Source: Cirrosporium novae-zelandiae (lineage: Eukaryota). From it: a stretch of DNA of 64,000 bases. A program made the position numbers and the translations under genes. Positions within the stretch are counted from its first letter, which is position 1; each line of letters starts with the position of its first letter. The stretch lies in contig JAPETS010000001.1 in NCBI GenBank assembly GCA_026023565.1, positions 124,001-188,000 of the forward strand, read 5' to 3'. Below are positions 43,120 to 63,724 of the stretch, in pieces. The notes beneath the pieces were generated by a model. The model saw nothing but the letters and a program-made list of their open reading frames with translations, searched no databases and had not been told where the DNA came from.

Positions 43120-43723
43120 ATATGTATATCTTTAAGCGCAACGCGCGATGACATGATATGACGAGCTAGAGAGTACAGAGCTTAAATATCAGGAGTAAAA
43201 AAATAAAGTCCATGAATAACGATATGAGTAGTCTCATTCTTACATAGATAAATAGTAGAAACTTGGAAAAGATATTAGCACAAGGTGCTTAGGAGGCCTT
43301 CCGTCGTACTTGACCTAGGCAGACCTTTTCTATCAATTATTACTATGTGTTATTGGCAACAACCACCTCCGGGCAAGTCAACCTAAATCGACCCATCTAC
43401 CTAATCCTCTCTTCCTCCCAACAAACCAAGCCAGGTTAATAATTTCTTCTTCTACTGTACAATTAAGAAACTAATTACATCCCCCCCTTCCTACTATCCA
43501 ACCTCTTTACAAAATTCAATCATTAACTTGTAAAATCGTTCCCTTGACGTACGTCAACCACAAAAGCCTTGAACACACATTCTTGACTTTAAGAAATTCT
43601 ATAAACTATATGGGTTGCCACGTGAAAATAGATGAAGCTTATAAATAACTTTTATTGCAATTATATCAGCAATGGCAGAGATCTCTCATCTCAAGCCAAT
43701 CATACTGCATGATGTCTACTGTG

Positions 43724-43796
43724 GTCATCTTAGCTCAGCGGTACGAGCAACCGGCTGCAGTCCGGTGGGTCCCCGGTTCAAATCCGGGAGGTGACT
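43724..43796 (+). tRNA. tRNA-Cys(GCA), intronless
   Basis: Acceptor GTCATCT/AGGTGAC, D-stem GCTC/GAGC, anticodon stem ACCGG/CCGGT with GCA at 43757-43759, T-arm CCCGG-TTCAAAT-CCGGG, U73 discriminator, and a T-run Pol III terminator immediately downstream. Confidence 0.93.
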
Positions 43797-44453
43797 GTTT
43801 TTTTGCCGCTGTACAGTAACAGATGTGTATGTGTTTTATTTGTACTTACTATACTACACCCCCGAATTTACCCGAGGCACATTTTGTTGTTCTTTTGGAC
43901 AATGTATTATACTTTTTACCCTGGAGAATTCATATGCCGTCCCTTCTTTCCTTCATTGCAAGGGACGCAAGGTAATTCTCCCGAGTTTAAAAAAAAGAAA
44001 GTTGCGGATGAATGACTGTGCATCTTACGGTTTCAGGGGGGTTCCTTGAATGTCAGTAGGTTCAAAGTCGAGTACAGTCGAAAAAATGAGCCTGGTTTTT
44101 CGCCCCTGATCCAGGAAATGCATAATTAAATACGAACATGAGGTAGAACAAAAAAAAAAAGGGCTGAGAGGGCGGAAAAAAACAAGGGACCCAAGGGATC
44201 GAAAGGATGCTTGGTGTCGGGTTTGATGTGGGGCAAGGGGTGGAAATCACGATATGTACCGGATGACTACCATCAAGGGGATATTTTTCTGCCAACCGGA
44301 GGGATGAGTGGATAAAACAAGAATGAATGGTTTAAGATATGGTTCTAGCGATCAGATTATCCATAACCCAATAGATGATTTCTTATTGATATTGTTCTAT
44401 CCAGTCAGAGGAGTTTTGGGTGTTTTGGGTGTTTTGAGGTTGTTGAGTTTGGG

Positions 44454-53649: not shown

Positions 53650-55929
53650 TCAATGTCTGGCTGCACGCTTGCTAGCTGCTGCAAGTGGTGAACTACCATA
53701 CCCGAAACTCGAATCCATAAATGAATCATCTTCTGAATCGTCATGAAGAACACTAGCCAGATTCGGCAACATGGGATCGTTCGCAGGTGATATTACTGGG
53801 CTCAAGGCAATCTTAGGTCTGCTCTTGAATACGCTCGCATAGTCTATTGTCTCTTCAAGAAGTTCCTCCTTCAAATTAGATTCTGGTTCCTCTTCGTAAG
53901 ATGGCTTTTGGGGCGTTTCCCACTGATTAATCGGAAATGATTCTCGTGGTTGGTGTATTGACTTTCGATGTCTTGATGGATCTGGTAACATAGACATTGA
54001 CTGCCTTGTTCGCTCCAACAAGGTATGTCCAGACAAGTCTTCAATATTACTTTCTCTACGAGCCGTATTGGATCGAGACCTGGATGGAGGAGGAAGCATG
54101 GCAGGAGAGGGCAATGTTCCAAGAGAACCAAGATTGGCCATTGATAGACGAGTTCGTTCAGCTAATGTTGTGGGCTTCTGCTTCACAGGAGAAGGCTCAG
54201 CATTCTTAATTGAGGTTACCATCTCATCCGCCAACAACTCTTGCTCCTCTGCGTCGAAAAGTGATAGACGCTCATGCTTCATACGCTTAGGTCGATCAGG
54301 TAGAGGAGACTCTGACTTTTCTGAAGATTTTGAGGGTTCCCTTGGTCTGGAAATGTTGGCCCTGCCGGAAAACTGTGTTCTTTGTGAATCAAAACTATCA
54401 TTTCTGATCGTTTCGGGCCTGCTGATAGTTGGTGAATGAATGGAATCTCTCCTTTCCCTTTCATACTTTTCTCTAGGTAAGCCGGTCTGGTTTACCCAAG
54501 ATAGAACATCGCCATCTGCTTTTACAGTAGACGGTGGTGCGGTGAAACTGCTTTCTAGTGGTGCTGGACTGGTGGGATTGTGGTTAGATAGCATAGTATC
54601 CTCCTTTTCACGTATGTTGGGCTTTTCTTCTCCTCCATTCAAAAGTTCCTGACGCATTGAAGCAATAATGGAGTAATATTCACTCCCCTCGGGTAATTCC
54701 TGGTTGACAGAAGATTGTGCATCCGAAGGGGGCATCTTTGAAGGAAGCAGATCGATATGTTGACTAAAGTCAAGTTCGAGACCTGACGCTGATTTGGGTT
54801 GACCCATTGGATCATCAATCTTGGAACCCTCAGAATCTTTCATGATCTCGTCATGAATCTTTCGCCAGTATTTTAACTTGCTTTGTTGCTCCTCCACACG
54901 TTCACTGAGACCTTCTAAAAGTCCCCTTGATGTTCCATCTTCAATATCGCGAATGGTACCATTGTGGACGCTCTGCCATACTCGTGCAAAAGGCGTCGAG
55001 AAAAGTCCATCCTGCCCCTGCTTACTTTCACCTTGTAGAATGACTTCTACCCACCTCGAATCACCCATCCAACTGTCTTCTAGGAGTTTCTTAACTCGAC
55101 GAGCTGTCACCTGATCCAAGTCGGCTTCAACATATTGCTCCTGTGCATCCGCCTTGATTTGTTCATGTTTCCGTCGAACCTTACGTTGTTTTAGATCCAG
55201 TAGCTGACTAAAATCTTCATATCGACCCCTTAAAATTTCTCGTTGAGCAAGAACATCAGCAAGAGAACCTCGATGCGCGATTATTAGAGGAACAAGAGTC
55301 CGCTTAGCATTTTCTCCTAAAACTGGTGCGGTTGCTAGTCTTTCTGCGACGGAGTTACTCCATCCATCACCCTCATTGATTACCTTTCTTAGAACGACGT
55401 TCGAGAATACCAGAATAACCTCCTCGAACTTTTCACCTTTACATTCATCAAGCATTGTTTTCCGTAGTATAGTCTCTCGTCCTAGAGCCCCATCTTTCTT
55501 CAAGTCCGAAAGACATCTGAAGAGGGCCGCGCGGAGGTTAAGGGATTGTAGTGGTTCAAGGGGAGGGAAAAAAGGGCGAAGTTTCTGCAATGAATATGAG
55601 CGCTGGTGTAAACAGTAGACAAAACGATAACCTCTTACATTGTTTGTGGTGTCGATATCCCAAAGCTCAAAAAGTCGGTATAGTGACCATTCCACACATC
55701 TTAATCGATTTTTCTGATTCTGGTTTGCGTCTTTGGTAGAGAATACTGCATTGGTAATATGAGGCCAATCTGGAAACTCCTCAAGACCTAGAAGACGTAG
55801 GTTGGTCAAAAACATGGAAATATTTGATGGACCAGGCCATTGGCGCGAAGATTCCAAAGTTCCATGTCGCAAAGGCCTAGAATCTGATAAAGGCCTAGAA
55901 GCATGGGTAGCTGTATATTTGGGTGGCAT
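53650..55929 (-). CDS. HAUS augmin-like complex subunit 6 (HAUS6_N) protein; probable in-frame intron 55585-55638
   Basis: FLTNLRLLGL..FPDWP, RLRCVEWSLYRLFELWD, KLRPFFPPLEPLQSLNLRAALFRCLSDLKK.G.LGRE..LRKTMLDECKGEKFEE and C-terminal SVFKSRPKIALSP. Confidence 0.82.
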   Translation of the reverse strand: MPPKYTATHASRPLSDSRPLRHGTLESSRQWPGPSNISMFLTNLRLLGLEEFPDWPHITNAVFSTKDANQNQKNRLRCVEWSLYRLFELWDIDTTNNVRGYRFVYCLHQRSYSLQKLRPFFPPLEPLQSLNLRAALFRCLSDLKKDGALGRETILRKTMLDECKGEKFEEVILVFSNVVLRKVINEGDGWSNSVAERLATAPVLGENAKRTLVPLIIAHRGSLADVLAQREILRGRYEDFSQLLDLKQRKVRRKHEQIKADAQEQYVEADLDQVTARRVKKLLEDSWMGDSRWVEVILQGESKQGQDGLFSTPFARVWQSVHNGTIRDIEDGTSRGLLEGLSERVEEQQSKLKYWRKIHDEIMKDSEGSKIDDPMGQPKSASGLELDFSQHIDLLPSKMPPSDAQSSVNQELPEGSEYYSIIASMRQELLNGGEEKPNIREKEDTMLSNHNPTSPAPLESSFTAPPSTVKADGDVLSWVNQTGLPREKYERERRDSIHSPTISRPETIRNDSFDSQRTQFSGRANISRPREPSKSSEKSESPLPDRPKRMKHERLSLFDAEEQELLADEMVTSIKNAEPSPVKQKPTTLAERTRLSMANLGSLGTLPSPAMLPPPSRSRSNTARRESNIEDLSGHTLLERTRQSMSMLPDPSRHRKSIHQPRESFPINQWETPQKPSYEEEPESNLKEELLEETIDYASVFKSRPKIALSPVISPANDPMLPNLASVLHDDSEDDSFMDSSFGYGSSPLAAASKRAARH

Positions 55930-56477
55930 TATTCCTATAATTGCTCCTATACAACATCGCTAATAAGCGAATTGAATGCCAAACACTTTTGTTGTTTAAT
56001 GTAATGTTTGATCTTAGAGAATCAGACCTGGGAAGCTCAGGTTGTAAACAATACTGTGGGTGCATATGGTCATGATCTGCCAATAGCGGTGAGAAGGTAC
56101 CTGACATAGCCGGCAGAACTGTTATAGCGAGCCTAAGGACTGCTAGGGACACCCCAAACGATCAACAGGCTAAGCCAAAAGTACAGTACGTGTACCTACC
56201 ACAGTAGCCAACTTTGATCTATCACGCTTTCCTTTGCCCCCCATGTATATGCGGGGGTTTTGCTGTACGTGATAATTCACTCTCAACATTAACAAATGCA
56301 CAGCTTATTGAACATAAAAACATTTCAATTTCCTTTCTCTTTCTTCTTTCTTATTTCACTTTCAGAACCTGATAAGAGAACCCACTGCTAATTCACATTT
56401 ATTTCGCATTCTCCCATTACTCTATCAAAACAGTCAACATTCTCTTATCAGTTCTGGAATTCATCATTCCTTTCAGC

Positions 56478-57321
56478 ATGGCTCCAAACATAGATACTAA
56501 TGCCTCTGTACCAGGTAAATCATATCTCTGCCTTGTATGTGCAATCTTCAAGAGAGTAACTAATTTTCTTAGCCTCTTCAGGTAGTCAGAACACGATTAC
56601 AGAACAGAATCCTTGGTCGGTAGATTCTGTCATTTCGAAACTTGCTCACAAGCCCCAAGCCAAGTCATCGTCCCCGTTACCATTTTTCCATATGCTTGAG
56701 CTCCTCAAAACCACAAAACGTGAAGGCTGGAGACGTTTTGAGATTCAACATGGAGAGTCAATCTCAGACCATATGTACCGAATGTCCATCATGACCATGT
56801 TGGCCCCTCAATCTCTCACCAAAAGACTGGATGTCTCTCGTTGCACTCGAATGGCCCTTGTGCATGACATGGCTGAAGCACTTGTTGGGGATATTACACC
56901 GGTGGATGGAATACCGAAACCAGAAAAGTCCAGAAGAGAAAGCGAAACAATGGACTATTTCTGCATCACCCTTCTTGGTAACGTGCAGGGTGGTTCAGCT
57001 GGTCAGGAAATCAGAGCACTCTGGCAAGAATATGAAGATGATAAGACAGAGGAAGCCCATTTTGTTCATGATATTGATAAGATGGAGCTTCTTCTTCAGA
57101 TGATAGAATACGAACGCACGCATAACAACGGAACAGGCAACAGCATTAATCTCGGCGAGTTTATATACGTTGCAGAGCGTATCAAGCTTCCAGAGGTGCA
57201 GGAATGGGCCGAAGAAATCAAACACGAAAGACTAGAGTTTTGGGCGGCTCTCGGTCATAACCCGAGGGACCATATTTCAAAGACTCTCGAGTCACAACAA
57301 GACGAATATTATGGAAACTGA
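56478..57321 (+). CDS. HD-domain 5'-deoxynucleotidase (HDDC2/YGK1-like); intron 56515-56572
   Basis: LKTTKREGW, ESISDHMYRM, MALVHDMAEALVGDITP, LWQEYE, FVHDIDKMELLLQ. The upstream ATG exon splices in frame. Confidence 0.9.
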
Positions 57322-58112
57322 ATAACTCAAAAATAATTCTCTGAGACATGAATATAGTTCATGACAGTGATGTATTTTTTTGCTTCTCATGATGGGAGTT
57401 TATGGAGACATGCCAGTCATATACCCCAAATAGAATGGTTGATTCAGAGCTATACATACAGCAAAGGATTACAAAAACCCGATCCGAAACATATAAAAAT
57501 TCAATTTGATGGCTTTGAGGTCCTAATTCTTATTTTCTCTCAAATACTATTGTTTCATTTCAAAGATTTTGGGTTTTTAATTTGGTTTATCTTGATATGG
57601 TCTAAATGTATACAGCTATTCTCATTCCTAACGTGATAATATAGAGAAAACACCAGATATATATTACAACGATCGAGTATCGCTTTACTGACATCCCTAA
57701 GGTTAGATGCCCCTCTAGGTGGCGATTTAGTCTTTCAACAAGGCTAGGATCCATTCTATACGCCTAAATGTCTACCATTATACGTTTCCAGTTCCCCTTC
57801 AAGCTATGAAAATGTCTTGGTACAGTTTCTGGGTGAAAAACTGATTATCTCATTATTTCACTCCTTTGCTATTACCCCATTTGGTTCGATTATCCCCTTC
57901 GAATCTTCCTTCGTAGCATGTCTTTTCGGCTTTTCAATCCTTATAAGGTTGCGTTCGATGAGTGCGTTCGGTGAGTTCTAACAGCACCAAAAGTAATAGT
58001 TACTGTGTATTACTTCACTATATAACCGGCCATCATTCCACCAACTATCCAGTCTACAATCATTTCCACATCTCTTAATCGAATCGAGAATCGTGATCAC
58101 ACACTCGCCCCA

Positions 58113-59015
58113 ATGTCTACGCTAGACCTACCCCGAAGCAGTTGTGAGTTCTGGACCGAAGTCTCTTGTGCCCAGCCCTTACGCCGTCTTATATTCTACT
58201 ATCTACACGCTGAATATGCGCCGAACTATTTTCGGCCTTCCCTATGCTACCTCTGTCGTGTTGGTGGAATTAATATTCGTACTCAATCTTGCTCTCGCAG
58301 AAATAATGGCCACCAGCTTGTCTGTTATACCCACGAATATCAGTATGTTCGCCGCATTGTGAACTTATACTGTAGACATGAATACTACTACAGCTCGTTC
58401 GTGACACTACGAAATGTGGCCGATTTTGAGAGCTTGGCAGCGAAATTTGAGATGGAGAGGAATACCGTGGATGCGTTTTGGTCCTCACGTGGAGGACCAC
58501 TTGAGGCAAAAGAGTTGGCCGACAAGCAAAAGTTGCTAACACTCATAAACGATGCGAGCACATCAATATTCAAGGAATCGCCAAGGCCAGAGTTGAATTT
58601 GAAATTGACGTGGTCTGCGATAGCGCGCCAGAAACACACTCAATATAATATCTTCCGGTCTGCCTACCCTAAGGAGCAGCTTGAGGAAGCATACCGTGTC
58701 GTCGGCGCAGATATAACGCTCGACAAAGTCATTGCCATCGATGAAGAGGGGGAGGAATCAGAAAGGGAGATGAGCTCACCAGAAACATCCGAACCCGTCT
58801 ACCCATACCCCACTCAACCCCAACCAACCTTCTGGCCAGAACCCCCCCCAGAAATCCCATCACCGCAAACGAATCCCGAAATTACACCAGGACAGCTCGG
58901 TTCAGACACCCCCGGACCAAGTAACCAATTCGACCCGCACAAACACGACGACCAGAGCTGGGGCGCCCGTTGGTTTGGATGCAAATCCTGTTGTGCGCGG
59001 AAGGGACGTAGCTAG
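58113..59015 (+). CDS. Hypothetical protein with a Cys/His-rich N-terminus and an acidic, Pro-rich C-terminus
   Basis: 300-aa ATG-started intronless ORF; CYLC, C..GHQLVC..H pattern and terminal GCKSCC. No family recognised. Confidence 0.6.
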   Translation: MSTLDLPRSSCEFWTEVSCAQPLRRLIFYYLHAEYAPNYFRPSLCYLCRVGGINIRTQSCSRRNNGHQLVCYTHEYQYVRRIVNLYCRHEYYYSSFVTLRNVADFESLAAKFEMERNTVDAFWSSRGGPLEAKELADKQKLLTLINDASTSIFKESPRPELNLKLTWSAIARQKHTQYNIFRSAYPKEQLEEAYRVVGADITLDKVIAIDEEGEESEREMSSPETSEPVYPYPTQPQPTFWPEPPPEIPSPQTNPEITPGQLGSDTPGPSNQFDPHKHDDQSWGARWFGCKSCCARKGRS

Positions 59016-59667
59016 TTGAGAGGCCAGTTCTTTAGATACGAGGGCACAGATGAGTGAGAGGAGATGCTGACGACGGAGACTGAGGTTGCAAGCGATTGGG
59101 AGTATGGACGCCACGTTTATGGTTTAGAGGGAGGGGGGGTGTCGACGCAGAAACAACAACCCCGACAGCTCCCGCAGCGCTCGGGGTGGGTAAGAAGCAC
59201 CCGGGTAAATTCTTCAAGTCGGGTTATTAGAAGAACAAGAAGAAGTTAGGAGGATATAGGTCCGATAGAATCAAGAAATGAGCTTGTTTAAGTAACATAT
59301 AACATGTGCATATACAACCTCTCACCACTTGTAACTCCAGAAACTATATATATTTTTTTCTTTCCCTGTCTTTCTTAGTAAAGGCTAAGTAGGAGTTTAG
59401 AAAACAATTAGGTGATCAAGAGAATTGAGGAGCTGGGCTTAAAGTCTGTTTTGAGATGGGTGTGTTTTGTTGGGGAAATGGGAAATGGAATAGAATGGTG
59501 GTGGATATGGAATAGAATAAAATAAATGTATCATATTTAATTTCGACTAATTTTCGACTGAATTCTTGACATCTTGTTATAACTCCCCCCCCCCCCCTAA
59601 AATCTAATCCCCTAATCCCCTAAACTCGACTCAATTCAATTCACAATTCAATTCAATTCAATTCAAT

Positions 59668-61326
59668 TCAATACTCCCAACTAACCCCTCTCCTCCTCTC
59701 TGGCCTCTCTGGCCTCTCTGTCCTCTCCCCATTCTCAACCCCAACTCTTTCCCTTCTCTCACCACCCGAAACCCTCCCCCCGACCGCTCTAGCCAACTCA
59801 TCAATCGCCCCCCTCGCCTCCCCCAGCCACCCTCTCCGATCCTCCCAAAACTCCCTCAAAAGCCCCAACCTGGAAAGCCCAAACGCAACTCTAACTTCCC
59901 TGCCCTCATGCGTTGCAAACCAGGTCCAGAGGCTGTTGACGGCGCATACGCGACCGAAGGAGACGCGTTGGGTCCAGGTTTCGCCGGAGAGGGTTAGGTC
60001 GTAGAGGACTGTTAGTTCGGAGGTTAGGGTGGGGGTGCGGGGGCCGAGGTTGAGGGAAGAGGATTTTTGGGGGGTGGGGTGGGGAGAGGTGGGGGAGGTG
60101 GGGTAATGGGAAGGGCGGGATTGGAATTGGTATTGGGATTGGTAGGGGTAGGGGGAGGAGGTGGGAAAGGGTCGGAAGAGCTCGGAAAGCCAGATTGCCG
60201 AGTTTAGCATTATTATTGATTTGTAGAGGAGGGGGCTTTCGGCGTAGATTGTTGATTCTTGGGATGTGAAGGGGTGGGAAGGTGTAGGTGGGGTGTTGAG
60301 GGGTGTGGTTTGGAGTATTGAATCGATGATGCAGATTGAGATATCTGGGAGGGTGGTAGTAGTAGGTCTGTTGGAGCGCTGGTATAGAAGCCCCCCCTTT
60401 AGCTGCCGGTTCGGGAAATCAAGCGCTTTTAATTTAGGCGTTAGGGATTGTGCGGTGTTGAGGTGGGTTTCCTGGAGCACGGCGAGCAAAACGTCGACAC
60501 GGCCCATGACGGGACGTTTTATTTCGGGGAACTGGGACAGGTAGGTGTGTAGGAAGGAGCGGAGCTCGAATTGGTTCGCGAAGGGTTGTGAAGAGGACGA
60601 CACGCGGAATTCAACTGCTGCTTGGAGCTTTTGCAGCAGGGCTTCCCCGATATGCACGAGGCCGTTTATGCCCGCGAGGATTTTTAGTTCGTCTTGGGAG
60701 GGGGAGCCGGTGGGGGCTTTGTAGACGAGGTCTCGTTCCACTTGGGACCAGGAGTGCATGAGGATGGAGGCGACTTGGATTTCTACTTGCATGTTGGAGT
60801 AGTGGCTTTGGCGCGGGATGAGGGTTCCGGGGCGGAGGTGGACTTGGTAGTGGTCTGCGTAGTAGCCACCGAGCCGGCGAGTCTGGCGTTCGTTTTCGCC
60901 TTCTGTGGTGGTGCCGTTGGAAGCATCATCGATGTAACTACCGCCGCCACCGTTCTGGTCGCTCCCTCGGTCTTTAGGGAAACAAACCGCCTGCTGGACA
61001 TGAAACGCTCTTTGAATGATCCTCTCAACAGCAGCTCGGTCGTTGGGGAAGTAGAGCGAAATCCGCACGCCTGCGAGGTCCGGGATATCGGCACGCACGG
61101 CATCGACGTCTTTGTAGTCTTCGCGTCTCTTTGCCTGGCGCTGCTCCAGTTTCTCGGCGAGGCCTTCGGGTGGTTTTGCCCGGAAGGTGATCATGGCTCG
61201 GATTCCATTGTAGTTCAGTTCTTCCTCGCACTTCTCGCTGGCGAGTCGGGCGACTCTTTCGTACGTGTCGTATCGCCGGAGGTAGTCCTTTAGAAAGGCG
61301 TGGATCGCCGGGGTTCCGGTTGCCAT
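59668..61326 (-). CDS. Stand-alone RelA/SpoT synthetase-domain protein (small alarmone synthetase-like)
   Basis: RAKPPEGLAEKL (RxKxxxSxxxK-like), DIPDLAGVRI (DxxGxR), GGYYADHY (GYxxxH), VEIQVASILMHSWSQVERDLVYK (EIQ..W..E....YK); intronless, 552 aa. Confidence 0.88.
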   Translation of the reverse strand: MATGTPAIHAFLKDYLRRYDTYERVARLASEKCEEELNYNGIRAMITFRAKPPEGLAEKLEQRQAKRREDYKDVDAVRADIPDLAGVRISLYFPNDRAAVERIIQRAFHVQQAVCFPKDRGSDQNGGGGSYIDDASNGTTTEGENERQTRRLGGYYADHYQVHLRPGTLIPRQSHYSNMQVEIQVASILMHSWSQVERDLVYKAPTGSPSQDELKILAGINGLVHIGEALLQKLQAAVEFRVSSSSQPFANQFELRSFLHTYLSQFPEIKRPVMGRVDVLLAVLQETHLNTAQSLTPKLKALDFPNRQLKGGLLYQRSNRPTTTTLPDISICIIDSILQTTPLNTPPTPSHPFTSQESTIYAESPLLYKSIIMLNSAIWLSELFRPFPTSSPYPYQSQYQFQSRPSHYPTSPTSPHPTPQKSSSLNLGPRTPTLTSELTVLYDLTLSGETWTQRVSFGRVCAVNSLWTWFATHEGREVRVAFGLSRLGLLREFWEDRRGWLGEARGAIDELARAVGGRVSGGERRERVGVENGERTERPERPERRRGVSWEY

Positions 61327-62297: not shown

Positions 62298-63724
62298 TTA
62301 CTTTCCTGTTTTTCCCATGTTAAAAACAGGTACTCCGAATTTCCACACTTGGTCCACCACCAACCTCTTTCCCTGGCTCCTCGTATCGTCTAGTACAACT
62401 AGATCTGCATCGGCTCCTTCAATCAAACTCCCCTTTGTATTCCCTAGTTTCAACATCTTTGCCGGTGTGGTTGTTACTGCTCCAATTGCTTCTGCAATAT
62501 CACAATTCGTCCATTCCAGCAGATTGTTTACGCAGTCCATAAGTGTCACGGCACTACCTGCAATCCCACCAGTCCGTTCAAGGATAAGATGTGTGCCTTT
62601 CTTTGTGACAAATTCGCCATTTGTCCAGGGGTAGTATCCATCGTCCAGCCCTGCATACATCATCGCATCCGTCACAAGAATCATTCCTTCAGGTCTCATC
62701 GCATGCGCCATCCGAACAGCAACAGGATGATTATGAATTCCGTCAGCGATGATTCCGAAATAGGGACGCTTGGAAATCTCATCGAGGTTTAGAGTGCCGA
62801 TTATCCCTGGTTCACGATGTGCAAAGGGACGCATGGCGTTGAAGAGGTGGGTTACCATCGTTGCACCAGATTTGAGGGCAATTGTAGCCTCAGAAAGGGT
62901 AGCGTCTGAGTGACCAATTGAGAAGACTATATTGGAAGACGTGAGGCGTGGGATTAGCTCGGCGATTGTACCGACTTCGGGAGCGGCCGTCATCATTTTG
63001 ATAGCAGGAATAGAAGGAGAGTTGGAGATCTCCGAAACATTGGAAGAATTGGGAGTCTGAGGCTCAGAGACATTAGATGAGCGAGCTGAATTGGACGAAG
63101 AACCCCAGAGGTTCGTGGCGCCGTATCGGTCTTCTAGATCGGATATGCCATTTGAAACGGCAGTCAAGACACCACTACAGTGAATTCCATTGCGTTTGGG
63201 ACTGATAAAAGGGCCTTCAACATGAGCGCCGAGAGATTCAGTGCCATCATGAGGATTTCGAGTGGAGCCAGATGGTACCAATGAAGGGAGGATCTTGGAA
63301 TATTAACCACCACAGAGCAACTAAGAAGTACCGATCAACAAACCTTGTGATACACATCTGCCGCTTGACTCGTCATCGTGGGGAGAAATGATGTGACTCC
63401 AGTTTTGATAAGTGACTGACTGATTCTGCGAAGACCAACATCAAACTCCTTCTTGGTGGCCGCTGGAATAGAGAAGTCGACGCCCTGCCAGCCATTGATT
63501 TGGACGTCTATGAATCCTGGAGCAAGAATTTTTCCGTGAAGGTTAACTGTGCGATGCTTTTGGAGTAGACGATCAACAATATTTGGTGTATCTATGATCT
63601 TGCCACTCTTAGAATCAATCCAAAGATCACCATTGACAAGCTCGCTGCCTCGAACAAGACGACAGTTTGTAAGGTGAACAAGGTAGGGCTTAGTGGCAAC
63701 CTCGGTGTCTACCGGAATAGCCAT
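62298..63724 (-). CDS. DAC1: N-acetylglucosamine-6-phosphate deacetylase; intron 63294-63343
   Basis: PGFIDVQING..GVDF, GVTSFLPT, GAHVEGPFI, MTAAPE, SIGHSDA, THLFNAM, IADGIH.H, LVTDAM, IAGS, GADADLVVLD. Confidence 0.94.

Follow-up and report, generated by a model that had tools for sequence, protein, structure and literature searches.

A stand-alone RelA/SpoT synthetase-like gene in the fungus Cirrosporium novae-zelandiae and its likely source in a bacterial two-part family

Introduction

What is a RelA/SpoT-type synthetase gene doing, alone and without introns, in the nuclear genome of a filamentous ascomycete? The question is raised by an open reading frame (ORF) in a contig of Cirrosporium novae-zelandiae (GenBank assembly GCA_026023565.1, contig JAPETS010000001.1), a fungus placed in the Xylobotryomycetes, Pezizomycotina. 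The window analysed here is the whole 64,000-nucleotide stretch from position 124,001 to 188,000 of the forward strand of that contig, and all positions below are those of the window. An earlier reading of the letters alone (hereafter the sequence-only reading) had picked out the ORF as a horizontally derived gene for a nucleotide-messenger enzyme or a cell-death/immune effector.

Divergent synthetase-only RelA/SpoT homologues (RSHs), proposed to have come from bacteria by horizontal gene transfer, have been described in three ascomycetes without an RSH hydrolase, Aspergillus nidulans, A. fumigatus and Gibberella zeae (Atkinson et al. 2011, PMC3153485). RelA_SpoT domains also occur in fungal NOD-like receptors (NLRs; Dyrka et al. 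2014, PMC4986451), as a 2023 review reports again (PMC10197012). The sequence-only reading had named both the NLR domains and the sporadic ascomycete genes of the small alarmone synthetase (SAS) type, and both are indeed in print. Stand-alone fungal synthetase genes having been published in 2011, the ORF is a further example, which limits the surprise. It bears on the question of what RelA_SpoT-type enzymes make or do in fungi, which according to that work lack a hydrolase of the SpoT/Mesh1 type.

The explanation we favour, with some reserve, is that the ORF is a horizontally acquired member of a bacterial two-part family in which a RelA_SpoT-fold head is joined to an exchangeable C-terminus. 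What the analysis adds to the published cases is the source family, the likely donor neighbourhood, the loss of a HEPN-like site in fungi and two substitutions at otherwise invariant positions of the ATP site.

An intact gene with a synthetase fold

The ORF (protein P0001) occupies 59668..61326 on the reverse strand and comprises 552 codons and a stop (TAG/TAA, 59668-59670). It is intact and intron-free, begins with the first in-frame ATG to follow a stop, has no internal stops and encodes 552 amino acids (aa); by our own estimate, an open frame of 552 codons at such a composition is far beyond chance expectation. Its sole Pfam family, even at E ≤ 1, is RelA_SpoT (PF04607; residues 49-204, 60715..61182), matched at E 2.3e-09 and 37.9 bits against a gathering cut-off of 27, and no HD, TGS, ACT, NACHT or NB-ARC domain and no WD/ANK/TPR repeats were found in the protein at that threshold. 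PADLOC assigned it to no family, and its relatives match PDC-S33 weakly and partially.

An AlphaFold2 model of the protein, built on a 12-sequence alignment, has a mean predicted local distance difference test score (pLDDT) of 61.6, with residues 1-300 mostly at 75-94 and values below 50 at residues 118-151, 386-460 and 514-552. The top Foldseek matches in the PDB are Staphylococcus aureus RelP (6ewz, 6ex0, 6fgj) and Bacillus subtilis RelQ/RelP (5ded, 5dec, 6fgk). For SaRelP (6ewz/6ex0/6fgj) and BsRelQ (5ded/5dec) the Foldseek probability is 1.00 and the template modelling (TM) score by target 0.64-0.74, with CapRel (7ztb) and the long Rel/SpoT enzymes ranking far behind. Profile and fold thus both uphold the sequence-only reading of a RelA_SpoT synthetase-like, intronless ORF at this place, as the Pfam scan upholds its remark that HD, TGS/ACT and NACHT/NB-ARC domains are missing.

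From the secondary structure and pLDDT of the model and its matches to RelP/RelQ, the synthetase-like (SAS-fold) domain is placed at residues 1-243 (60598..61326), including a long N-terminal helix and a helix at residues 211-243. Within it lies a Gly/Asn/Thr-rich loop (residues 118-151, 60874..60975; pLDDT 28-34) that is predicted to be disordered and that the relatives in the 12-sequence alignment do not have.

Membership of a large, mostly bacterial family

A word-based search returned 11 relatives of the protein, among them proteins of Fusarium oxysporum f. sp. albedinis (P0002; 34% identity over 88% of the query) and of a Xylariales sp. (P0003; 31% over 87%) as well as unnamed metagenome proteins. 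A HMMER search with a profile of these 11 and P0001 (12 sequences) matched 10,392 cluster representatives at E ≤ 0.001, among which other SAS families are to be expected, and 990 at E ≤ 1e-30; the best 150 of these 990, with scores of 351-556 bits and lengths mostly of 410-450 aa, align to almost the whole profile. P0001 itself scores 441.8 bits (profile positions 3-410, residues 5-552), a value inflated by its being one of the 12 profile sequences. Independently of the profile, its BLASTP identity to family members outside the profile is 36-45%, the nearest of them (43-45%) being unnamed proteins or Acetobacter aceti, and it appears about equally close to the bacterial and to the other fungal members.

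In the GTDB, taken at one genome per species, a relative is encoded in at least 439 genomes (439 of the 600 pattern matches listed). Eighty bacterial loci were kept, whose proteins are 33-42% identical to residues ~1-300 of the ORF protein. The taxa include Clostridia and other Bacillota, Paenibacillus, Streptomyces, Mycolicibacterium, Ralstonia, Burkholderia, Azospirillum, Caulobacter and Commensalibacter, with Planctomycetota, Chloroflexota, Bacteroidota, Actinomycetota and Pseudomonadota all represented.

Judged from these sequences, the ORF protein is a member of a large, mostly bacterial family of ~430 aa, composed of an SAS head, a conserved helical middle and an exchangeable, usually HEPN-like C-terminus. 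It carries the family-specific residues FP93-94, MH190-191, W193, NG221-222, E228 and R241, and its helical middle module (residues 244-385, 60172..60597), with conserved F249, L255, G275 and L280, is common to the bacterial family. The C-terminal ~300 aa, which the sequence-only reading had left unrecognised, are in fact collinear with the middle and C-terminal parts of this family. In some members (P0087, P0093 and one of a 100-member alignment) the HEPN-like module is replaced by TPR, GGDEF (diguanylate cyclase) or ankyrin modules. Literature searches, for synthetase-HEPN fusions and for horizontally transferred fungal alarmone synthetases, found no published description of a family that joins synthetase, helical and HEPN-like parts, a provisional result with subscription journals thinly covered. 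The HEPN survey PMC3710099 does not use the words SpoT, ppGpp or alarmone. Acetobacter aceti, Commensalibacter, Xylaria and Fusarium are absent from three supplements of PMC7229694, classification tables aside.

Two further observations concern fungal proteins. P0166 of Xylaria flabelliformis (785 aa) has a short-chain dehydrogenase domain before its RelA_SpoT part, and its cluster mates at 90% identity are 437 aa long; it probably represents two merged gene models. The top ESM Atlas feature match of residues 1-300 of P0001 is a cluster of 62 proteins of ~252 aa, labelled 'putative RelA/SpoT domain-containing protein' and 60% eukaryotic (Ascomycota), so that shorter fungal relatives, outside the length-limited searches, may exist.

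Origin of the fungal gene

Relationships were examined on an alignment of 247 rows, with FastTree on all 247 and IQ-TREE (LG+C20+F+G4) on 58 of them: 14 near the clade of the ORF, 32 named bacterial loci taken for taxonomic spread and 12 other representatives. P0011 and P0012 are left out of the IQ-TREE set, and the tree is unrooted. IQ-TREE places the ORF in a fungal clade of seven rows with P0002 (Fusarium), P0003 (Xylariales), P0115/P0166 (Xylaria) and two unnamed metagenome proteins, at ultrafast bootstrap/SH-like approximate likelihood ratio (UFboot/SH-aLRT) supports of 97/98. This clade groups with Acetobacter, Commensalibacter and three unnamed proteins in a set of 15 rows (99/92), which in turn groups with Caulobacter and three more unnamed proteins in a set of 19 (97/93). 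FastTree gives the same groupings, with a set of 10 rows that holds the ORF, made up of eight named fungal proteins and the unnamed P0103 and P0161, and a set of 19 rows in which these are joined by Acetobacter, Commensalibacter and three unnamed proteins; the Stachybotrys protein P0012 is placed elsewhere on a very long branch. A metagenome scan with P0161, meant to show whether the unnamed clade members are fungal, gave one 1.8-kb contig without flanks.

In these trees, then, a small fungal clade is nested among Acetobacteraceae-type (alphaproteobacterial) sequences. Since the family is widespread among bacteria but rare among fungi, a bacterium-to-fungus transfer is the simplest reading, and a bacterial origin is supported both by the nested position and by base composition. 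GC content at third codon positions (GC3) is 0.646 in the ORF and 0.68 in its synthetase part, against 0.36-0.54 in the 19 other window ORFs of at least 200 aa, a comparison that leaves out the ORF's own antisense shadow. We regard family membership together with a bacterial origin as highly probable, and the horizontal, bacterial derivation put forward in the sequence-only reading fits the nested sets and the outlying GC3 alike. That reading had described the 5′ half as GC-rich; this half is indeed GC-rich, but the richness spans the whole ORF, with GC of 0.58 for aa 1-260, 0.52 for 261-385, 0.62 for 386-460 and 0.59 for 461-552.

Some features of the data weigh against this account. The branch of the ORF is long (1.52 changes per column) and its placement is flagged as unsure. 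As the tree is unrooted, the direction of transfer is judged from how widely the family is distributed. The high GC3 points to a recent arrival and the 31-34% identity to the closest fungal relatives to an old split, two signals that do not sit easily together. The history may have been one old transfer with many losses, a later move from fungus to fungus or two transfers from similar donors.

An outlying GC3, together with a best-matching neighbour protein labelled as from a metagenome-assembled genome, could also point to an assembly artefact, in which a bacterial fragment was misjoined into a fungal metagenome-assembled contig. This we consider extremely improbable, since the ORF has fungal genes within 0.7-1 kb of either end, all on a single 1.75-Mb contig, the nearest neighbours in the tree are fungal rather than bacterial, and the protein has eukaryote-style low-complexity insertions that are absent from its bacterial relatives.

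The synthetase active site

In S. aureus RelP, the adenine of ATP stacks on Arg78 and Arg112, and its ribose is held by His190. The phosphates are bound by Lys80, Lys88 and Arg91, with Ser84 in contact with the alpha-phosphate, and the Mg2+ ligands are Asp107 and Glu174. The G-loop Tyr151 is critical for guanosine binding; all ATP-coordinating and catalytic residues are strictly conserved between RelP and RelQ (PMC5794853). We mapped these positions onto the ORF protein by HMMER alignment to SAS chains and by identical spacings (D-to-R 5 residues, E-to-H 16). The basic residues R78, K80, K88, R91 and R112 are all kept, as R49, K51, K59, R63 (one position off) and R88, as are the Mg2+ ligands (D83 and E182) and the G-loop tyrosine (SaRelP Tyr151, BsRelQ Tyr116), which is Y155 in the motif GYYADH. 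Ser84 is replaced by G55, at a position that is variable in the family. Across 235 non-fungal rows, the retained R49, K51, K59, R63, D83, G86, R88, G154, Y155, H159, E182 and Q184 are 98-100% conserved, and among head residues conserved to this degree the ORF differs at two only, E195Q and H198R.

These two differences speak against a working enzyme and are not alone in doing so. H198, the counterpart of the ribose contact His190, is invariant in 235/235 non-fungal rows and is Arg in the ORF; E195, 100% conserved in the same rows, is Gln. The codons concerned, Q195 (CAA) to R198 (CGA), lie at 60733..60744, and as CGA is two base changes away from a His codon, a single read error at R198 is unlikely. 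Glu and His are both kept in the four other fungal-clade rows shown (P0002, P0003, P0115, P0103). Further departures are D218A and F152L (each at a position 97% conserved), R161Q (85%) and the basic family motif RAKRxxRL, which reads RAKPPEGL in the ORF.

Three motif deviations had been listed in the sequence-only reading, RAKPPEG for RxKxxxS, EIQVAS for EIQIRT and E197-R198 for EH. All three are real, but EIQVAS is the family consensus (A186 90%, S187 95%) and the Ser position is variable, which leaves only the change from EH to ER, with the unlisted E195Q, as peculiar to this ORF. GYxAxH is likewise the family consensus where RelP/RelQ have GYRSxH. With H198R and E195Q found in the ORF copy alone, its activity may be altered, weak or lost, and the two substitutions at invariant ATP-site positions make that activity doubtful; we put the chance that the protein is still an active pyrophosphokinase somewhat below even.

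The ORF could also be an inactive relic or pseudoenzyme, acquired from bacteria, with its HEPN site dead and its synthetase site decaying, whose protein does nothing or only binds. The substitutions E195Q, H198R, D218A, F152L and R161Q, which are seen in the ORF copy only, would be expected of such a relic, as would the loss of two basic residues from RAKRxxRL, the three predicted-disordered insertions or tails (residues 118-151, 386-460 and 506-552) and the absence of the HEPN His. The 90% cluster of the protein, moreover, has one member, and in the 50% library the protein is its own representative. Decay sits poorly, however, with a 552-codon frame that is intact and with the retention of D83, E182, all the phosphate- and adenine-binding Arg/Lys residues and the G-loop Tyr. 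The root-to-tip distance of the ORF from the fungal node (1.52) is not above that of Xylaria (about 1.9), and in our view an Arg could still hydrogen-bond the ribose. On balance we think a relic rather unlikely.

At the other extreme, the gene might encode a true (p)ppGpp synthetase whose alarmone signal is internal or aimed at bacteria, as speculated by Atkinson 2011 and Dyrka 2014. In favour of this, the enzymes that the protein matches best in fold and sequence, RelP/RelQ, produce (p)ppGpp; the protein retains the G-loop Tyr as well as the catalytic Asp and Glu, and its only NCBIfam match is to the YjbM model. That match, however, scores 23.7 bits where the cut-off is 320. In the family, moreover, the Arg-Thr of EIQIRT is replaced by Ala-Ser and the Arg-Ser that follows the G-loop Tyr by x-Ala, and two residues reported as strictly conserved in RelP/RelQ (PMC5794853) differ in the ORF. 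The only HD-domain gene seen in the window is an ordinary HDDC2 orthologue. A (p)ppGpp synthetase is therefore an improbable identity for this protein.

The C-terminal module

Beyond the helical middle, alignment and model mark off a Pro/Ser/Thr/Tyr-rich low-complexity insertion (residues 386-460, 59947..60171; GC3 0.73) that no relative has, and an unconserved, Arg/Glu/Gly-rich tail that is predicted to be disordered (residues 506-552, 59671..59811). Between them, residues 461-505 (59812..59946) carry the motif LWTWF...VRVAFG, common to the Fusarium and Xylariales proteins, and appear in the alignment as a remnant of the HEPN-like C-terminal module of the family.

Among bacterial members this module is marked by a motif RNxx[ILVAM]H, which 102 of 156 family proteins and 46 of the 80 locus-encoded proteins have within their final 130 aa; R394 and H399 of the motif are at least 90% conserved in the 100-member bacterial alignment. 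Sub-threshold Pfam matches of those 100 members at E ≤ 1 are to HepT-like (22), HEPN_RiboL-PSP (16), DUF4145 (15), HEPN_Swt1 (5), HEPN_Cthe2314 (2) and HepT-like_2 (2), families that we assign to HEPN by their names and by table 1 of PMC3710099. Two family members match PADLOC CARF_HEPN models at E 2-4e-4. In the ORF protein, R479 aligns with the Arg of the bacterial RNxxVHG, and the Asn and His are missing in all seven fungal-clade rows shown; in the nearest bacterial groups the motif is already weakened, to RLRTELVHG in Acetobacter and to YIHSYFIHG in Commensalibacter.

Other results leave the HEPN assignment less than firm. Every HEPN-family Pfam match of the bacterial members is below threshold, and a profile search of PDB sequences at E ≤ 10 found only SAS chains and no HEPN chain. 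A model of residues 205-552 (mean pLDDT 66.7, with residues 205-305 at 86-95) gave no Foldseek match in the PDB at E ≤ 0.001. With VIA-align its best hit, an axonemal protein, reached Z 6.0 and HEPN entries Z 4.1-4.9, all within the noise range of helical bundles, and the ESM Atlas offered no usable feature-based match for the part, its best structural match having a TM of 0.31. The bacterial C-terminal module is thus best described as HEPN-like, an assignment that is not firm and not proven. If the module is a HEPN domain, its RNase site would be dead in fungi. With both the His and the Asn of the motif lost, the fungal-clade module would be at most a regulatory or binding part.

Genomic context

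The 297 neighbours at positions -2 to +2 of the 80 bacterial loci fall into 191 similarity clusters, the largest of which is present at 14 of the 80 loci. No conserved partner or antitoxin-like neighbour gene was found across these loci, so context gives no function. From 46 of the 80 loci, 89 of 154 immediate neighbours were scanned, and most are metabolic or regulatory: at 41 of the 46 loci the neighbours are housekeeping or unannotated, and at five there is a defence- or mobile-type neighbour. The neighbours at these five are a 1210-aa SIR2_2 protein (locus L040), a DUF4145 protein (L053), a DNA methylase (L016), an integrase fragment with a reverse transcriptase (L066) and a HIRAN/HipA_N protein (L070).

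In the fungal window, the neighbours of the ORF are ordinary fungal genes. On one side lie HAUS6 (53650-55959, reverse strand), an HDDC2-like HD_3 protein (56560-57321, forward) and an ORF of 329 codons with no Pfam family and a Pro-rich C-terminus (58026-59015, forward), which is convergent with the synthetase-like gene; on the other lies an amidohydrolase (62298-63302, reverse). Farther ORFs encode STEEP1, a Fungal_trans transcription factor, a peptidase M3, NDT80, an F-box protein and a Na/Ca exchanger, and the only tRNA in the window is a tRNA-Cys (GCA) at 43723-43797 on the forward strand. The HAUS6 ORF shares 98% identity with a Cirrosporium novae-zelandiae protein across 99% of the ORF's length, and as its next best matches are only 34-45% identical, the host appears phylogenetically isolated. 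Signs of mobile elements near the synthetase-like ORF are limited to an (AATTC)n microsatellite found by repeat scan across its stop codon (59623..59675) and one weak 26-nt inverted repeat.

The HD_3 gene, 2.3 kb from the synthetase-like ORF, was considered as an alarmone hydrolase and rejected, being an ordinary HDDC2/YGL101W orthologue (PDB 5yox, 8e-41; 4dmb, 7e-35) and not of the SpoT/Mesh1 type. Because its product is the orthologue of yeast YGL101W and human HDDC2, its nearness to the ORF is probably due to chance.

The window also bears on the proposal, made in the sequence-only reading, that the gene encodes an immune or cell-death effector; in one form of this idea, it would be a free-standing RelA_SpoT domain of the NLR type triggered in trans. 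There is precedent in that RelA_SpoT is among the 12 N-terminal annotation classes of fungal NLRs (PMC4986451) and that the Podospora anserina NLR gene nwd5, with a RelA_SpoT domain, is induced 3.6-fold in incompatibility (PMC3689799). The bacterial relatives, too, swap their C-terminal module (HEPN-like, TPR, GGDEF, ankyrin) in the manner of conflict systems, and the defence- or mobile-type neighbours at five of the 46 scanned loci point the same way. Set against this, the ORF protein has no nucleotide-binding oligomerization domain (NOD) or repeat domain; no NLR, HET or HeLo gene is present among the 36 ORFs scanned in the window; no longer, fused relative of residues 1-260 was found among 2308 candidates, which is weak evidence; the 30 nearest ESM Atlas clusters carry RelA_SpoT only; and housekeeping or unannotated neighbours surround the other 41 bacterial loci. 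No link to fungal NLR immunity was thus found in what was scanned, and we consider the effector proposal improbable.

Proposed activity and significance

Returning to the ORF as an acquired member of the bacterial two-part family, its head would bind ATP-Mg2+ through R49, K51, K59, R63, D83, R88 and E182, and would transfer the beta,gamma-pyrophosphate to the 3′-OH of an acceptor stacked on the G-loop Tyr155, as in RelP/RelQ. Throughout the family, GYxAxH and EIQVAS take the place of the GYRSxH and EIQIRT of RelP/RelQ, and the differences between the two groups lie mainly at positions near the acceptor. The acceptor in the family is therefore probably other than GDP/GTP bound as in RelP/RelQ; as with the toxic SAS enzymes (toxSAS), it could with equal likelihood be an adenine nucleotide or the 3′ end of an RNA. 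That the product of the ORF protein is (p)ppGpp we think improbable.

A more ambitious possibility, which we consider unlikely, is that the bacterial relatives are a single-protein conflict or signalling module, in which a pyrophosphokinase is wired to a HEPN RNase (or to TPR, GGDEF or ankyrin), and that one such gene passed into filamentous ascomycetes, which went on to retain it once the RNase site had died. If this were true, toxSAS-like pyrophosphorylation of nucleotides or RNA 3′ ends would take place in the cytosol of a eukaryote, where it could serve, for instance, as an effector in stress or antagonism. The Fusarium and Xylaria orthologues, which have the His, are natural comparators for the Arg-bearing copy. 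With a defined bacterial source family, the ORF is a clean example of a bacterial gene that has become established among the core genes of a fungus, and the bacterial family itself, with its synthetase head and exchangeable, usually HEPN-like tail, may be a more useful by-product than the fungal gene.

Comparison with known systems

The long RSH enzymes (Rel/RelA/SpoT) have HD hydrolase, TGS and ACT domains, whereas the ORF protein has none of the three. It shares with RelP/RelQ of Bacillota (PDB 6ewz, 6ex0, 6fgj, 5ded, 5dec, 2be3) the same fold, at Foldseek probability 1.00 and TM scores by target of 0.58-0.74, together with the Mg2+ ligands, the ATP-binding Arg/Lys residues, the G-loop Tyr and the lack of hydrolase and TGS/ACT domains. 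On the other hand, its identity to them in fold alignments is only 15-20%, it has about 300 extra C-terminal residues, and in it GYRSxH is replaced by GYYADH, EIQIRT by EIQVAS, the Ser at the alpha-phosphate by Gly and the His at the ribose by Arg.

The toxSAS enzymes (FaRel, FaRel2, PhRel, CapRel) use the SAS fold outside ppGpp signalling, for (pp)pApp synthesis or tRNA 3′-pyrophosphorylation, and CapRel structures (7ztb, 9erv) are among the fold matches of the ORF, although poor ones (TM by target 0.34-0.36, root mean square deviation 12-15). The fused C-terminal part of the ORF's family recalls what we take to be the regulatory part of CapRel. Unlike toxSAS systems, the bacterial relatives of the ORF show no antitoxin-like gene conserved next to them; no neighbour cluster is present at more than 14 of the 80 loci. 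In MNT-HEPN (MntA/HepT) pairs and their fused forms, a pol-beta-fold nucleotidyltransferase is combined with HEPN (PMC13000451), a layout similar to that of the bacterial relatives by analogy only: the transferase here is of the RelA_SpoT type and not MNT, the HEPN assignment is sub-threshold, and the ORF lacks the HEPN His.

Among fungal systems, the RelA_SpoT domains of NLRs (P. anserina NWD5; Dyrka et al. 2014, PMC4986451) belong to the same Pfam family and likewise occur in filamentous ascomycetes, whereas the ORF protein is without NACHT/NB-ARC and WD/ANK/TPR repeats. The divRel proteins of ascomycetes (PMC3153485) are, like the ORF product, stand-alone synthetase-only RSHs, a likeness drawn from their description rather than their sequence; they come from Aspergillus and Gibberella, and the host of the ORF belongs to another class, Xylobotryomycetes. 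The closest counterpart is the bacterial ~430-aa family, represented by the Acetobacter aceti 'RelA/SpoT family protein' (P0158) and by proteins of Commensalibacter (L002), Streptomyces (L057) and Paenibacillus (L007), with which head and middle are collinear at 33-45% identity, and from which the ORF protein is set apart by three insertions or tails, by H198R and E195Q, and by an RNxxVHG motif cut to R479-V-A-F-G.

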